Assembly: GCA_035471785.1 (NCBI GenBank)
Contig: DATIPQ010000098.1
Span: 41,446-105,445, forward strand
Length of the DNA: 64,000 nt
DNA from: Acidobacteriota bacterium
GTDB lineage: Bacteria; Acidobacteriota; UBA6911; RPQK01; DATIPO01
Direction: 5' to 3'
Below are positions 2,765 through 33,697 of this stretch, in pieces (the stretch's first letter is position 1; the number at the start of each line of letters is the position of its first letter). The position numbers were made by a program, and so were the translations under genes. The notes below the pieces were generated by a model. The model saw only the letters and a program-made list of their open reading frames with translations, made no database searches and had not been told where the DNA came from.

Positions 2765-3541
2765 ATGACGGATGCAAGTACCAGGCGTGTCGTTTTTGAA
2801 AGCAGCCAAGGCCTGAAGCTGTCGGGCATTCTGCATCGACCTTCTGAGAGCCGGGGCTGCGTCATCCTCTCGCATTGTTTCACCTGCAACAAGAACTACA
2901 AGATTCTGGTTCGCCTGAGCCGCGCCCTGGCCCAAGCCGGCATTGCCTCGCTGCGCTTCGACTTCGCCGGGTTGGGCGACAGCGAAGGCGAGTTCGAGGA
3001 GACCACCATCTCCTCCGACAGCCATGACCTGGAGCAGGCCGTCCGCTGGGCGGTGAAGGAAGGCATGGGGCCGGTGGTCCTGGCCGGCCACTCGATGGGC
3101 GGGACCATCAGCATCGTCACCGCCGGACGGCTTCCCGAAGTGGCCGGACTGGCCGTCATCGGGACGACCTCGGATCCGGGCAACATCTACCGCCTGCTGC
3201 CTGGCCTCGACCCCGCCCGCCGTCCGCCCGAGAACTCGGTGGACGTCACCATCGCGGGCCGATCCTACCCCATCAGCCAGGAATTCCTGCGCGACCTGGA
3301 GGGACTGTCGCTCACCGGGACTTTGGCCTCCTACCAGAAGCCTTTCCTGGTGATGCACGGGACCGAGGACAAGACAGTGGGCATCGAGCATGGAATCAAG
3401 CTCTTCCAGACCGCCAAGCAACCCAAGTCCTTCCTGGCCATCCCCGGAGCCGAGCACCTGCTGGGACGGCGGCGCGATACCGACTTGGCCGGCGCCGTAC
3501 TGAGCGCCTGGGCCGACTCGTCCCTGCGTCGGGCCGTCTAA
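2765..3541 (+). CDS. Alpha/beta hydrolase (dienelactone hydrolase/S9-like)
   Basis: GHSMGG nucleophile elbow and a C-terminal His motif. 258 aa. Confidence 0.8.
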   Translation: MTDASTRRVVFESSQGLKLSGILHRPSESRGCVILSHCFTCNKNYKILVRLSRALAQAGIASLRFDFAGLGDSEGEFEETTISSDSHDLEQAVRWAVKEGMGPVVLAGHSMGGTISIVTAGRLPEVAGLAVIGTTSDPGNIYRLLPGLDPARRPPENSVDVTIAGRSYPISQEFLRDLEGLSLTGTLASYQKPFLVMHGTEDKTVGIEHGIKLFQTAKQPKSFLAIPGAEHLLGRRRDTDLAGAVLSAWADSSLRRAV

Positions 3542-9084: not shown

Positions 9085-10245
9085 TCACGACCACCTTCGT
9101 AAAAGGAGCACGATCGAGCGGGCCATCCTGGCAGTCACCGGGTTGCTGAGCATGCGACGGCGCAGGCGCATGGTCAAGCTGCTGTTCAGCTCCCTCACCT
9201 CGGCATCCAGATCTTCTGCATGCTTGCGGAGGAGAGGGATCAGCCACTCCAGATAGCGGGCCGCGGCCTGCATTTCGGCCTGGTGCTGCGGAGGCATGCG
9301 GGCGAATTCGTCGATGACGCTTTGGTAGATCCGCATCAGTTGACCAACTATCAGTTCAAGACCAGCCTCGCGGCGGACGCGCTCATGAACGGCTCGGGCA
9401 TCGGCGGCGTCATAGCACTCGATTTCTCTCACCAGATTTTCTGCCGTCAAGTCGTGTTCCAAGGTGTAGAGGCCAAAATTCAGCCCCCTCAAGCGGTCTA
9501 GGTTATCGCCGCTCACCATCGGTCCCAACTTTCCCAGGTCCATGACGATGACGGCTGTGCCCACGGCCAGGGCCTCGAGGGCGGCCCGTCCTTTGGCGAA
9601 TACCAGGTCGTAACGCCCCAGCTCCCTTTCGGGGTGAGGAGTGAACCTGCCTGAGATTTTGCCCAGCAGATCAAGTTCGAGACCCGCTCGTTCGCAAGCA
9701 GTTCGAACTGTTGCGACCTTGCCGCTATTCACGGTGCTGCTGAAGAGCAAGGCCTTGCGAGGACGCTGCGATAAAGGAGGGCGGGGCTGAAAGCGGTCGA
9801 GATCGACGAAATTGGGCAGCAGGGTCACCCGTCCCGCATCGATCCCCTCGGTCTCACGCAGGCGCCGTTCGTTATTCTCGTCCACGGCCAGGTAATGGAG
9901 AATGCGGGGGAAGGCAACGGGCGTCTCCTCCCAGGGAACGCTGCCGTGGCAGTAGAGGATGGCCGGCGTGGAGGGGAATCGCAGCAGGGCCTTCATGACC
10001 TCCATGTGGTGGTGTCCATGAATGATGTCGGGGGTGAAGGGAAGATCGTCGAGGCGGTCGACAACCGCGATCCCCTCCTCGCGCATCTCTTCGGCCACCG
10101 CCCCCAGGCGCGGACTGAACCCCGCCACACTCACCCCCCTGCGCACCAACGCCCCCGCCACGTCACGCACATAAAGCTCCGTCCCGGAGCGAAAATCGAG
10201 GGTGTTATTGGTGAACAGAACCTTGATTTGGAATTCCTCCCCCAC
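9085..10245 (-). CDS. Glycosyltransferase (GT4-like)
   Basis: GTG start. 386 aa with a GT-B fold-like N-terminus and a C-terminal helical domain. Confidence 0.7.
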   Translation of the reverse strand: MGEEFQIKVLFTNNTLDFRSGTELYVRDVAGALVRRGVSVAGFSPRLGAVAEEMREEGIAVVDRLDDLPFTPDIIHGHHHMEVMKALLRFPSTPAILYCHGSVPWEETPVAFPRILHYLAVDENNERRLRETEGIDAGRVTLLPNFVDLDRFQPRPPLSQRPRKALLFSSTVNSGKVATVRTACERAGLELDLLGKISGRFTPHPERELGRYDLVFAKGRAALEALAVGTAVIVMDLGKLGPMVSGDNLDRLRGLNFGLYTLEHDLTAENLVREIECYDAADARAVHERVRREAGLELIVGQLMRIYQSVIDEFARMPPQHQAEMQAAARYLEWLIPLLRKHAEDLDAEVRELNSSLTMRLRRRMLSNPVTARMARSIVLLLRRWS

Positions 10246-21601: not shown

Positions 21602-21700
21602 GGAGGTACGTCTCGTCTGGTGACGGGCCTGGTCTTCAAAACCAGTCGAGCCGCGTCGAGAGGCGTGGCTGGTGGGTTCGATTCCCATGTACCTCCGCCA
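21602..21700 (+). tRNA. selC: tRNA-Sec (selenocysteine tRNA, anticodon UCA)
   Basis: 8-bp acceptor stem GGAGGUAC/GUACCUCC with G discriminator and CCA. Anticodon stem CUGGU/ACCAG with loop CUUCAAA (UCA). Long variable arm. 5-bp T stem (8/5 architecture). 99 nt. Confidence 0.85.
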
Positions 21701-28340: not shown

Positions 28341-29189
28341 CTATTCGCTTTTCCCCATCAGGCGCGAGTAGAGCCGGTTGAGATCTTCTTCGCTGTGATA
28401 GTGGAGACGGATATGTCCGGATTTGCCCCGGCCGTGGATCTCCACCTTGGTTTGCCAGTGATCTTCCAGAGTTTCCTCGGCGGCCCGGATATTGGGGTCC
28501 TTGCCGGCGGGCGCCTTTTGCTGGGAGGGTTGCAGGAGCTTTTGCACCCGGCGCTCCACGTCGCGCACGCTCAAGCCCTTCTTGCGGATGAGCTTAGCCA
28601 GCTCCAACTGGCGGTTGCGGGGCAGGGGAAGAAGGGCGCGGGCATGGCCCATGCTCAGGATGCCGGCTGAAACTTCTTGCTGGATGGCCTTGGGCAGCTT
28701 GAGCAGCCGCAACATGTTGGCCACGGCGGAGCGGCTGCGGGAGACGCGCTGAGCCACCTGCTCCTGGGTCAGTCCGAAGTCCTCAATCAGCAACTGGTAG
28801 GCGTTGGCTTCCTCGATGGGGCTGAGTTCTTCGCGCTGGATGTTTTCCACCAGGGCCAGCTCCACCATGGATTGGTCGGACACGTCCTGGATCAAGGCCG
28901 GGATGCGATGCAGGCCGGCCCGCTGGGAAGCCCTCCAACGCCGTTCGCCTGCGATGAGTTCGTATCCGTCCTCGAGGGGCCGGACCACGATGGGCTGGAG
29001 GAGTCCTTTTTCGGTGATCGATGAAGCCAACTCGTCCAAGGCCTCGGCGGAGAAGTGGTTGCGGGGCTGGAAGGCATTGGGCTTGATTCTCTCCACGGGG
29101 ATCTGTTGCAGAGGCGAATCAGGTTCTTGGGCGCTCTTGGCAGGAAGCAGGGCGTCGAGGCCTTTGCCGAGGGCTTTGCGTTTGCTCAT
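28341..29189 (-). CDS. parB: Chromosome partitioning protein ParB
   Basis: MSKRKALGKGLDALL...GERRWRAS. The real start is ATG 29189; the track ORF has a 124-aa spurious extension. Confidence 0.9.
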   Translation of the reverse strand: MSKRKALGKGLDALLPAKSAQEPDSPLQQIPVERIKPNAFQPRNHFSAEALDELASSITEKGLLQPIVVRPLEDGYELIAGERRWRASQRAGLHRIPALIQDVSDQSMVELALVENIQREELSPIEEANAYQLLIEDFGLTQEQVAQRVSRSRSAVANMLRLLKLPKAIQQEVSAGILSMGHARALLPLPRNRQLELAKLIRKKGLSVRDVERRVQKLLQPSQQKAPAGKDPNIRAAEETLEDHWQTKVEIHGRGKSGHIRLHYHSEEDLNRLYSRLMGKSE

Positions 29190-29215
29190 GGGTCGAGTCT
29201 TTCCTGTCGGAGGTT

Positions 29216-30007
29216 TTAGCCGGCGCCGGCGGTGGCGGGCTCGAGCTGAATGCGGTCCAGCAGCTCGCGGGCCAGTTGCAGATAGGAGCGGGCGCCGCGG
29301 CAGCGCGGGTCGTAGAGGAGGATGGGTTTGCCGAAGCTGGGAGCCTCGGCCAGGCGGACATTGCGCGGAATCACGGTCTGCATCAGGTGTTGGGGCAGGT
29401 GGCCGGCGATGTTTTCCTGGATTTGGGTGGAGAGGTTGAGACGGTCGTCGAACATGGTCAGAAAAACACCCTCGATGCTTAAGGCCGGATTGAGGTGATC
29501 GCGAACCCGCTGAAACGTGCCCAACAAGTCGGAAAGCCCCTCCAGGGCGAAATACTCGCATTGAATGGGGATGAGCAGGGAATCAGCGGCCGTAAGCGCG
29601 TTGACGGTGAGAATGCCCAGAGAAGGGGGACAGTCGATGAGGATCAGGTCATAGCGTCCCCAAAGAGGGCTCAAGACCTTCCTGAGGCGGAACTGGCTTT
29701 CTTCTTCCTCCAGGAGTTCCAGCGTGGCGCCGGTCAGGTCGCGGTTGGAAGGCAGCAGGGAGAGGCGGTCGACTTCGGTGGCGCAGACCGCCTCGGCGGC
29801 GGGAAGGCGGTCGATGAGGCAGTTGTAGACCGACCGCCGCAAGGAGACCTTGTCGATGCCGAAGCCGGAAGTGGTGTTGCCCTGAGGGTCGAGGTCGACA
29901 AGCAGGACGTGCAGGTCGGCTGCCGCCAGGGAGGCGGCCAGATTGATGGCCGTGGTGGTCTTGCCCACTCCTCCTTTCTGATTGACGATGGCGATGGTCT
30001 TCGGCAT
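29216..30007 (-). CDS. parA: Chromosome partitioning ATPase ParA/Soj
   Basis: [25 protein letters not shown]. Confidence 0.9.
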
Positions 30008-30038
30008 GCGAGGCAGAATAACACGAAAGGGAAGGGAA

Positions 30039-30054
30039 TGTTTCACGTGGAACA
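30039..30054. other. parS site 1 (TGTTTCACGTGGAACA; 15/16 to consensus)
   Basis: One mismatch to TGTTTCACGTGAAACA. Confidence 0.6.
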
Positions 30055-30065
30055 GAGGGGGCCGA

Positions 30066-30081
30066 TGTTCCACGTGAAACA
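30066..30081. other. parS site 2 (TGTTCCACGTGAAACA; 15/16 to consensus)
   Basis: It is the exact reverse complement of site 1 and lies 11 nt away, forming a 43-bp composite palindrome. Confidence 0.6.
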
Positions 30082-30097
30082 CTTCCCGGAAGCCCGT

Positions 30098-30703
30098 CTA
30101 GGGGAAGAAAATCAGCCTGGAGATCATGCGCCGATGGGAGCCGGGAACCGCCAGCCGAGTCTCGGCGCGCCACTTCACGGCGCCGCTCACCGGGACGTCC
30201 TGCCCGTGGAAAGCCAGCAGGGGAATCTTCCCCCCGCCCAGCGCCGCCTCCACGCGGGCGGAGGTCTTGAGGGCCCTTGCCGTTGCCGCGTCGACGTTCG
30301 TCCAGACGAAGTCCTCGGCCGGCAGGTGATGCACTTCGCCCCCCAACCCCAGACGCCGCACGGCTTCCTTCAGGAACACGGCTTTGCGATGGTGCCGCTC
30401 CAGCAAGCTGACCTCGAGGGCAGGATCGAGAACCTGCAGGCCCAGGCCCGGGAAGCCGGCTCCGCTTCCGATGTCGGCGAGCTTTCTCTCGCCCTCCTTG
30501 AGCAGCCGCAGACCCAGGAAGGACTCGAAGAAATGAAACTCCATCAGCTCGCCGAAGGAAGCCACCGTGGTCAGAGAGATCCTCCGGCTCCATTTCTGCA
30601 ACAAGGCCCAGTAGGTCTCCATCTGCTCGATCTGTAGAGGAGTCAAGGACAGGCCGAAGCGTTCTTCAAGCCCTTTCAGCCGAGCCTTCTCCTCCCCGGT
30701 CAA
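30098..30703 (-). CDS. rsmG: 16S rRNA (guanine527-N7)-methyltransferase
   Basis: GidB-like sequence. [14 protein letters not shown] motif. Confidence 0.85.
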
Positions 30704-32571
30704 ACCCGGCTCCGCTCGCTCAGGGTGAGGTGGATGTTGAGGATGGAAACCGCCGCCGGGGTAACGCCCGGGATCCGCGCGGCCTGGCCCAGGCTCTCGG
30801 GACGCACCCGTCCAAAGCGCTCCTTCATCTCGCTTGAAAGGCCCTCCACGCCGCCATAGTCGAAATCGCCCGGAATGCGCCGCGTTTCCATCTTGCGGAC
30901 TCTCTGCACATCCCTTTCCTGCCGGCGGATGTAGCCCTCGTACTTGACCTCGGTTTCAACCACGTTGGCCTCGTCTCCCCTCAATTCTATGCCGCCCAGG
31001 TCGAGCAAGGGCCGCAGGTCCTCCAGGCGGCACTGCGGGCGGCGCAAAAGCTGGGCCAGATTCAATCCGGCCTCCGCCTGCAGCCTGCCGCGCAAGTCCT
31101 CGAATCCGGGACAATCCCGCTGCAAGCCGGCGGAGTCAAGAAAGTCTACGGCCCTGTCGATCCTTTTCAGCTTCTGATGGACCGCCTCCAATTCACGGGA
31201 GGAGAGCAATCCGGCGCGATGGCCGTGCTCAGCCAGACGCCTGTCGGCGTTGTCGATGCGCAGCAGCAGGCGGTACTCGGCACGCGAGGTGAACATGCGA
31301 TAAGGCTCGTCCACTCCCCGCGTCACCAAATCGTCGATGAGGATGCCGATGTAGCTCTCCTGGCGGCCCAGCACCAGCGGTTCGCGGTCCTGCACGGCCA
31401 AGGAGGCGTTGAGACCGGCCATCAGTCCTTGGGCGGCGGCCTCTTCGTATCCCGTGGTGCCGTTGATCTGGCCGGCCAGGTAAAGGCCCTCCACCTGACG
31501 CGTTTCCAAAGTGCTCTTCAATTGACGGGGCTGCACAAAGTCGTACTCCACCGCGTAGCCCGGACGCACCACGACGGCCTCTTCCAATCCCTTGATGGCG
31601 GCTACCATGCGCTTCTGCACGTCGACCGGCATGCTGGTGGAAAAGCCGTTGATATAGATCAATGGAGAATCGAGGCCTTCCGGCTCCAGGAAAAGCTGAT
31701 GCCGAGAACGGTCGGAAAAACGGCGGATCTTGTCCTCGATGGAAGGACAGTAGCGGGGCCCGGTGGCCGTCAGAGTCCCCCCCAAGAGAGGACTGCGCCG
31801 GCTGTTCTCGCTAATCAGATCATGCACCTGCGGATTGGTGTAGGCGATCCAGCAATCGACCTGAGGAAGGGCCGGCCCGGTGGTGCGAAAGGAAAAAAAA
31901 GTCGGGTCCTCGTCTCCGGGCTGCGCCTCGAAGCGGCTGAAGTCGATGCTGGAACGCTGAAGACGCGGGGGAGTGCCCGTCTTGAGACGCCCCATTTCGA
32001 AGCCGATCCCGCTGACCGAGTCGGCCAACTTGACCGCCGCCCGTTCGCCGGAGCGCCCGGCCCGAAAACGCTCGCCGCCCACGTGGCAGACTCCGTTGAG
32101 GAAGGTGCCGGTGGTCAGAATCGCCGTCCGGCAGGAGATCTCTTCTCCGCCCGCCATCTCGATGCCGGCCACACGCCCTCCCCGGCGCACAATGGCGGTC
32201 ACTTCACCCCCCAGCAGGTCCAAGCCGGGCATGGTGGAGAGCAGTTCCTGCATGCGCAGGCGGTAGCGTTCCTTGTCGCTCTGGCAGCGAGGGGCTTGAA
32301 CGGCAGGCCCGCGGCTGCGGTTGAGGAGGCGGAACTGAATGGCGGTCAGATCGGCCTGGCGACCCATGATGCCGCCCAAGGCATCGATTTCGCGCACCAG
32401 GTGACCCTTGGCAATGCCCCCGATTGCGGGATTGCAAGACATTTGACCGATCATGTCCAGGTTGATGGTCACCAGCGCCGTGGAGGCCCCGACCGCCGCG
32501 GCCGCCGCGGCCGCTTCGCAGCCCGCATGGCCGCCGCCGATCACTACCACGTCATAATGCCGTCTGCTCAT
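30700..32571 (-). CDS. mnmG: tRNA uridine 5-carboxymethylaminomethyl modification enzyme MnmG (GidA)
   Basis: [20 protein letters not shown] motif. ATG 32571 is used; ATG 32583 is the alternative. The 96-aa track extension is spurious. Confidence 0.9.
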
Positions 32572-32650
32572 GAGAAAGGCCATTATAACGCGAGAGGCTA
32601 TCTCTCCCTTCAACCACGCCGCTTCCGGCCTCTCGTCTATAATGCCCAGC

Positions 32651-33697
32651 ATGACCGATAAGCGGAAGAGACTGACTGAACTGGTGTCCTGCGCCGGTTG
32701 AGCGTCTAAGCTGGCACCGGAGGTGCTGAAGACAGTCCTGAGCAATCTGCAGGGATGGAATGACCCGGCCGTCCTCGTCGGGTACCAGACTGCGGATGAC
32801 GGGGGAGTGTATCGTCTGTCCGACGAACTGGCACTGGTGCAAACCGTGGACTTCTTCACCCCGGTGGTCGACGACCCCTTTCAATATGGTCAGATCGCCG
32901 CCGCCAACGCTCTCAGCGACGTCTACGCCATGGGCGGAGAGCCGCGCTTCGCCCTTTCCGTCGTGGGCTTTCCCAAGTCGGGGCTGGACACCGGCATCCT
33001 AGGGGAGATAATGGCGGGAGGCAGCGCCAAGCTGGCCGAGGCCCGCGTTCCCGTCATAGGGGGCCATTCCGTCCAGGACCCTGAGATCAAGTTCGGCTAC
33101 TGCGTGACCGGCGTGGTCTCTCCCCACGCCTGCTGGACCAACGCGGCGGCCCAGGCCGGGGACGCGCTGGTGCTGACCAAACCGCTGGGCACCGGCATCA
33201 TCACGACCGGGGTGAAGTTCGAGAAGACGCCTCCACCCGTGCTGGAAGCCGCTCTGGAGGTGATGCTCAGGCTCAATGATGTCGCTGCCCGGGCCGCGGC
33301 CTCCTATTCCGTTCATTCCGCCACCGATATTACCGGCTTTGGACTCCTCGGCCACGCCCTAGAAATGGCCCAGGCCTCCGGCGCCCGATTGCGCCTGCGG
33401 GCCTCTCAGGTTCCCCTCATTGCAGGCACGCGGGATCTAGCCCAAACGGGCATGTTGCCGGGAGGAATCGAGTCCAACAGGGCTTATCTGGGGGATCGAG
33501 TCGAGTGGCATTCCACAACCCTCATTGTGCAACAGATCCTTCTCGATCCGCAGACCTCGGGGGGACTCCTTTTCAGCCTGCCGCCGGCTGACGCGGAGAA
33601 ACTCGTCGCCGACCTCGCCGGGCAGAACCAAGAGGCCGCCATAGTGGGCGAAGTCGTGGAGAAGCGCGACGAGATCCTGATTGAAGTCGTACCGTAG
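32651..33697 (+). CDS. selD: Selenide, water dikinase (selenophosphate synthetase), Sec-containing form with in-frame UGA at 32699..32701
   Basis: ATG 32651 gives [30 protein letters not shown]..., which aligns with E. coli SelD [23 protein letters not shown] with Sec in place of Cys17. The track ORF begins at GTG 32723, downstream of the UGA. SelD core motifs are present throughout. Confidence 0.8.
32714..32726 (+). other. bSECIS-like hairpin of selD (GCACC-GGA-GGUGC)
   Basis: 5-bp stem, 7 bp with G-U extensions. Apical GGA loop 17 nt after the UGA. It shares the CCGGAGG motif with the 8374..8398 hairpin. Confidence 0.45.

Follow-up and report, generated by a model that had tools for sequence, protein, structure and literature searches.

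What are the two mirror-image 16-mers that lie between rsmG and parA in the genome of an uncultured Acidobacteriota bacterium, and does their mirror-image relation carry a function of its own? We addressed this question in the window, i.e. the whole stretch of 64,000 nucleotides that was analysed, and in the corresponding loci of related and of more distant bacteria. Our analysis indicates that both 16-mers are very probably real parS sites of the chromosome, the centromere-like places at which this bacterium's ParABS system nucleates, a reading to which we give a probability of about 0.92. The pair stands in a textbook arrangement; it is ordinary, already known, and constitutes no new kind of element. 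The locus comprises the following features, given in the direction in which the genes are read:

30700-32574, minus strand: mnmG (gidA), first gene of the row mnmG-rsmG-parA-parB (Pfam GIDA, 6.5e-159)
30098-30703, minus strand: rsmG (gidB) (Pfam GidB, 1.1e-28)
30066-30081: predicted parS distal to parA, reading TGTTCCACGTGAAACA on the plus strand and TGTTTCACGTGGAACA on the parA-coding strand (orthologous site in the nearest relative, L081, at 9122)
30055-30065: the 11-bp spacer GAGGGGGCCGA between the parS sites, non-palindromic
30039-30054: predicted parS proximal to parA, reading TGTTTCACGTGGAACA on the plus strand (orthologous site in L081 at 9149)
30015-30023, minus strand: extended -10-like motif TGtTATTCT, separated by 7 nt from the parA ATG downstream of it; a Shine-Dalgarno sequence is absent
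29216-30007, minus strand: parA (soj), 263 aa (Pfam AAA_31, 5.7e-64; CbiA; MipZ; Walker A motif KGGVGKT)
28341-29189, minus strand: parB (spo0J), 282 aa, start codon ATG at 29189 (ParB_N, 2.9e-37; HTH_ParB, 4.4e-36; ParB_C, 3.1e-08)

The two 16-mers are exact reverse complements of each other, start 27 bp apart, span 43 bp in total, and occupy the positions 32-75 nt upstream of the parA ATG (30007); the rsmG stop codon TAG (30100-30098) is located 16 nt upstream of the distal site. In a mismatch-tolerant search, each 16-mer differs from TGTTTCACGTGAAACA at one position and from TGTTNCACGTGNAACA at none. A preliminary description of the locus had reported the single mismatch in each site and the reverse-complement relation of the two mismatches; both observations are correct, and the mismatched position, at which both window sites vary, is written as N in the published consensus TGTTNCACGTGAAACA (PMC7022226). 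Moreover, both window sites are the same 16-mer, in opposite orientations, as the parS inside B. subtilis parB, 5'-TGTTCCACGTGAAACA (PMC4333373). A known asymmetric parS variant, with T at the degenerate position in one half-site and C in the other, occurs here once on each strand, and this is all that the mirror image amounts to. The same description had proposed a 43-bp composite palindrome in the rsmG-parA spacer: the 43-bp span and its location stand, but the continuity does not, because the 11-bp spacer is non-palindromic and the element is consequently an inverted repeat with a spacer.

Across 100 dinucleotide-preserving shuffles of the window, parS matches at two or fewer mismatches numbered zero, versus two matches at one or fewer mismatches in the real window. 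Scattered matches of equal quality do not occur within the 64-kb window; at two or fewer mismatches, the only further match in the rest of the window is a 16-mer at 2876-2891 (TGTTTCACCTGCAACA). The two mismatches of this 16-mer break the central CACGTG core, including its CG, and the site lies inside an alpha/beta-hydrolase ORF (2765-3541), ~27 kb from parAB. By a rough estimate, chance alone would produce ~0.02-0.03 matches of this type in 64 kb; the 16-mer may be a weak or degenerate parS, or else a coincidence.

The protein that would read these sites is encoded in the canonical parA-parB operon directly downstream of them. The window ParB is 100% identical to a 282-aa protein of the NCBI entry “MAG TPA: Acidobacteriota bacterium”, with the next relative at 78% and the others at ≤67% identity. 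It contains a helix-turn-helix domain, a C-terminal dimerisation domain and the sequence GERRWRA, which carries the CTP-binding GERRxR motif. It matches PDB entries 1VZ0, 7BNK, 6SDK, 6T1F and 4UMK, and the solved ParBs of T. thermophilus, M. xanthus, B. subtilis and C. crescentus are matched at 1e-52 to 1e-60. Its DNA-recognition segment (...SRSAVAN...SMGHAR...) aligns without gaps to those of M. xanthus, B. subtilis and T. thermophilus ParB, and an Arg and a Gly in this segment are invariant in 30 Acidobacteriota ParBs. From motif mapping at a constant offset, we infer that these two residues correspond in numbering to R173 and G201 of Caulobacter ParB, which contact parS and have been reported as absolutely conserved among ParB orthologs (PMC7383237). 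Where the same mapping places Caulobacter residue 184, the window ParB has Lys; as residue 184 is variable among ParBs, permissive and no specificity switch (PMC7383237), Lys at this position is no real counter-evidence to recognition of parS. The preliminary description had also considered that ParB of this lineage might recognise a different motif; such an altered specificity is argued against by the relatives, which keep canonical parS.

The surroundings of the pair are those of a chromosomal ParABS locus. The gene order on the minus strand is mnmG-rsmG-parA-parB with both parS sites between rsmG and parA, and the same gene row is found in the eight relatives L081-L088. Beyond the 3' end of parB, and convergent with it, are mnmE, jag, yidC and rnpA; rnpA-yidC-jag-mnmE together with mnmG-rsmG-parAB make up the classic origin-region gene set. 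Searches of the 64-kb window for a dnaA gene, a DnaA-box cluster and an AT-rich unwinding element returned nothing convincing, and GC skew at the 64-kb scale is uninformative on origin location. As the window is devoid of dnaA and of a DnaA-box cluster, proximity to the origin is suggested only by the origin-type gene neighbourhood. On the other side of mnmG, a divergent gene of the AIRS/AIRS_C family (32723-33697, plus strand) is its neighbour here and in most relatives; the AIRS fold is common to SelD, ThiL, PurM and HypE. An Rfam scan of the window matched a tRNA-Ser and a tRNA-Sec only and gave no match at the parS locus; the tRNA-Sec gene (21602-21696, plus strand) was detected by ARAGORN as well as by Rfam (75.1 bits).

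The position of the pair directly in front of parA has a consequence for gene calling. Minus-strand translation from GTG 30082 gives an FHVEH/FHVKH peptide ahead of the true parA. The ParA N-terminus is identical in L081, and ParA aligns from ATG 30007 in every relative; the extension from GTG 30082 is therefore an artefact of translating both parS sites, just as the preliminary description had interpreted its FHVEHR...FHVKH segment. A further trap for gene calling, in addition to the parA extension, is the mechanical parB ORF (28341-29561, minus strand): it contains 124 codons upstream of ATG 29189, and these overlap the 3' portion of parA in a different frame.

We retrieved the loci of the eight relatives and scanned them for parS. 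The nearest relative (L081; GCA_035471925.1), whose ParB is 78% identical, has two parS sites, at 9122 and 9149, that are 27 bp apart and at the same distance from parA as in the window; both read TGTTCCACGTGGAACA and are fully symmetric. The L081 spacer is exactly 11 bp long, as in the window, and differs from it at three of the 11 bases. Because L083 and L084 share one ParB, L082-L088 represent six distinct lineages, with ParB identities of 62-67%; at the rsmG/parA junction, a single parS is present in each of these loci, either within the 3' end of rsmG or in the rsmG-parA spacer. In three of them (L085 at 10976, L086 at 10889 and L087 at 10841), a second parS directly follows the stop codon of parB and is flanked on its other side by the convergent gene mnmE. 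The window and L081 have no parS after the parB stop codon, both of their sites being upstream of parA.

Comparison of the window with L081 also delimits the conserved segment. Over the 75 nt that precede the parA ATG, 66 of 75 positions (88%) are identical, and over the final 23 nt 100% are; third codon positions of parA are 58-60% identical, and immediately beyond the distal parS, on its upstream side, the similarity is lost. The difference between 88% and 58-60%, together with the loss of similarity beyond the distal parS, shows that the module consisting of parS, 11 bp, parS, 31 bp and ATG is under purifying selection.

Taken together, a match to the 16-bp consensus, a cognate ParB with helix-turn-helix domain and GERRxR motif, an adjacent ParA and conservation at the orthologous position were all found at this locus. 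The proposal of the preliminary description that ParB is loaded here is supported by the motif, the parA-parB operon, the ParB residues, the eight related loci and the purifying selection on the segment. By analogy with established ParB biology, CTP-bound ParB dimers would bind each site via their helix-turn-helix domains, close into clamps, slide onto the flanking DNA and vacate the site for the next dimer; the ParB complex would be moved by ParA-ATP and would probably load SMC. At a distance of 27 bp, both sites could be occupied, and they would act as redundant or additive loading points, plausibly with a higher loading rate. Data from Corynebacterium indicate that a single parS suffices and that several add robustness (PMC7083940).

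Whether the tight spacing and the opposed orientation are special can be judged from other bacteria. Our cross-phylum sample comprised, among the matches listed by a profile search of genome contigs, 80 parB loci with ParB ≤55% identical. Thirty-seven of the 80 listed loci have a parS within the retrieved flanks, and seven of the 80 have two parS ≤49 bp apart: two in Acidobacteriota (L001, 41 bp; L003, 42 bp), both upstream of parA; three in Bacillota (L058, 49 bp; L064, 39 bp; L078, 28 bp); and two in Betaproteobacteria (L042, 39 bp; L066, 26 bp). In metagenomes, at least 120 contigs (L089-L208) carry two TGTTNCACGTGNAACA sites 1-31 bp apart. Close pairs of predicted parS are common across phyla.

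The spacings of the metagenome pairs are not uniform. Among the matches listed, after de-replication, 110 pairs were compared, an arbitrary sample in which start-to-start distances up to 47 bp were searched: no pair is closer than 22 bp, 16 of the 110 fall at 22-29 bp, almost none of the listed pairs lie in a trough at 30-33 bp, and a broad main class extends from 34 to 47 bp with its mode at 36-40 bp. As natural pairs exist down to 22 bp, a spacing of 27 bp is apparently sterically allowed. A Rayleigh-type test for helical phase on the listed spacings gave a weak signal (R ~0.22) that is untrustworthy given the 47-bp ceiling and the arbitrary sample; the non-uniformity does no more than hint at steric or helical-phase constraints on neighbouring ParB dimers. 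Larger arrays were also observed: six parS at 32-37 bp intervals in L196 (780-932); four parS with successive intervals of 23, 22 and 37 bp in L132 (276-373); five parS in L169 (826-1000), four of which form a 38-39 bp repeat with conserved spacers; and, in a Blautia genome (L034, 46-3154), six perfect parS ~500-700 bp apart upstream of parB.

The same material bears on the mirror-image mismatches, on which the preliminary description had laid emphasis. Among the listed pairs in which both sites are asymmetric, eight are direct and one is mirror-related, and tight pairs that are not mutually complementary exist (L093, L136, L144, L204 and L205). Two changes distributed among the four degenerate half-site positions are mirror-related by chance in ~1 of 3 cases, and the sister sites in L081 are symmetric. 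These observations together give no evidence that mirror mismatches are selected, and we reject mirror symmetry as a selected feature; the emphasis was misplaced, the two sites being the same known variant in two orientations.

Among other explanations, the one that survives best would add a function to the parS reading, with the pair serving as both centromere and operator. The extended -10-like motif at 30015-30023 suggests a putative parAB promoter that would yield a leaderless or near-leaderless mRNA. In the window and in six of seven relatives (L081, L082 and L085-L088), a TGnTAnnnT-like motif precedes the parA ATG by 7-11 nt, whereas the seventh, L083, has only a weaker -10-like sequence, TGCTAAGGT; none of these seven relatives, nor the window, has a Shine-Dalgarno sequence before parA. 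A strict sigma-70 two-hexamer scan of 29800-30400 detected no promoter, so that the conserved TGnTAnnnT-like motif is the only ground on which we propose one. In the window and in L081, 18 nt separate the -10-like hexamer from the end of the proximal parS, whose promoter-proximal half sits at the would-be -35 position. ParB nucleated at the proximal site would thus occlude the -35 region and could dampen parAB transcription, i.e. parA-parB would be autoregulated.

This dual role fits the close succession of proximal parS, conserved -10-like motif and ATG, as well as the conservation of the parS-to-ATG block (88% identity to L081 versus ~60% at neutral sites). It also has a precedent in P. aeruginosa, where ParB on the intergenic sites parS3 and parS4 represses adjacent genes (PMC7022226), and the control of ParA and ParB abundance is still described as an open question (PMC13371061). 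Other points speak against it. The promoter is a prediction that the strict sigma-70 scan did not return, and an extended -10 promoter may work without any -35 element. In L082 and L085-L088, parS and the -10-like motif are separated by between ~23 and >60 nt, which means that the operator geometry is not conserved in the more distant relatives. In B. subtilis, loss of Spo0J left the expression of parS-adjacent genes unchanged; furthermore, CTP-loaded ParB leaves parS quickly. We therefore regard an operator function as tentative and, on balance, unlikely.

A more elaborate version would join the 27-bp pair and the abutting leaderless-type parA promoter into one 75-nt module, in which the loading of ParB onto the proximal site would act back on the transcription of parAB as a chromosomal autoregulatory switch; still more speculatively, the complementarity of the arms could be kept by hairpin-templated mutation or by selection on cruciform extrusion. 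We consider this version doubtful, and less probable than the operator function by itself.

It is improbable that the inverted repeat acts as a nucleic-acid structure over and above its two protein sites, either as an RNA hairpin located where the rsmG transcript ends (terminator, attenuator or stabiliser) or as a DNA cruciform. Under such an explanation, the mirrored C-to-T and G-to-A changes relative to the sister sites would be compensatory, or would result from hairpin-templated (quasi-palindrome) mutation that keeps the arms complementary. Minus-strand RNA from 30105 to 30005 does fold such that the two sites pair with each other (-39.7 kcal/mol; z = -6.6 versus shuffles), and within the sites the window and L081 differ at exactly two mutually pairing positions, T-A here and C-G there. 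However, any two opposed copies of a near-palindrome fold in this way, so that the z-score is a by-product and the strong RNA fold follows automatically. The apparent covariation is one event between two sequences, with the one-in-three chance expectation given above. The distant relatives have only one parS at this junction, the five non-complementary tight pairs lack such arms, and direct pairs outnumber the mirror pair among the listed asymmetric pairs. No U-tract follows the hairpin, the sequence there being UUCCCUUCCCUUUCG, and a terminator scan of 29800-30400 found none on the minus strand. An intrinsic (rho-independent) terminator of rsmG was accordingly rejected: the hairpin is possible, but it stands without a U-tract and no minus-strand terminator was found.

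A chance occurrence or a non-functional parS-like relic is effectively refuted by conservation and can be set aside, given the zero matches in 100 shuffles, the position, number and spacing kept in L081, the position kept in six further lineages and the purifying selection on the segment.

With the parS pair as the preferred reading, the locus adds nothing conceptually new to ParABS biology. Its value lies in annotation. In the genome of this uncultured Acidobacteriota bacterium, the pair marks the predicted ParB nucleation point and thereby, probably, the domain close to the origin; the true starts of parA (ATG 30007) and parB (ATG 29189) are fixed; and the N-terminal FHVEH...FHVKH peptide is exposed as a gene-calling artefact of translated parS. 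The conserved parS-plus-promoter module and the non-uniform pair spacing are side observations.

Comparison with known systems places the pair among familiar arrangements. As with parS3 and parS4 of P. aeruginosa, the window sites are intergenic and immediately upstream of a gene start; in contrast to that case, the putative targets here are parA and parB themselves, for which we found no established chromosomal case in the literature consulted. In Caulobacter, the two strong sites 3 and 4 are near enough to each other for a 260-bp segment to hold both, and they have been engineered together on such a segment (PMC5815017). The parS consensus of Myxococcus xanthus is TGTTCCACGTGGAACG, with 22 sites (PMC7022226), compared to two found in this 64-kb window. 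Half-sites of the Myxococcus C/G type, GTTCCAC, form the inner halves of the window sites and both halves of the sites in L081 and L001-L003, and M. xanthus ParB (PDB 7BNK) is among the best matches to the window ParB (4e-59).

In Burkholderiales, Bacillota and other Acidobacteriota, the close pairs located at parAB or in its vicinity likewise consist of two full parS within tens of bp. Among the listed metagenome pairs, the 27-bp spacing of the window pair would fall into the tight class of 22-29 bp, which is the less frequent one (16 of the 110 listed pairs), and the opposed orientation of two asymmetric variants is uncommon (one of nine listed pairs). The closest likeness in sequence is to B. 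subtilis. Unlike the single site internal to B. subtilis parB, the window sites are intergenic, upstream of parA, and present in two opposed copies 27 bp apart; yet the parS in spo0J (parB) is the identical 16-mer, TGTTCCACGTGAAACA, and in both bacteria parS is tied to a soj-spo0J operon in an mnmG-rsmG-parAB neighbourhood whose ParB has the same domains and the same GERRxR motif.
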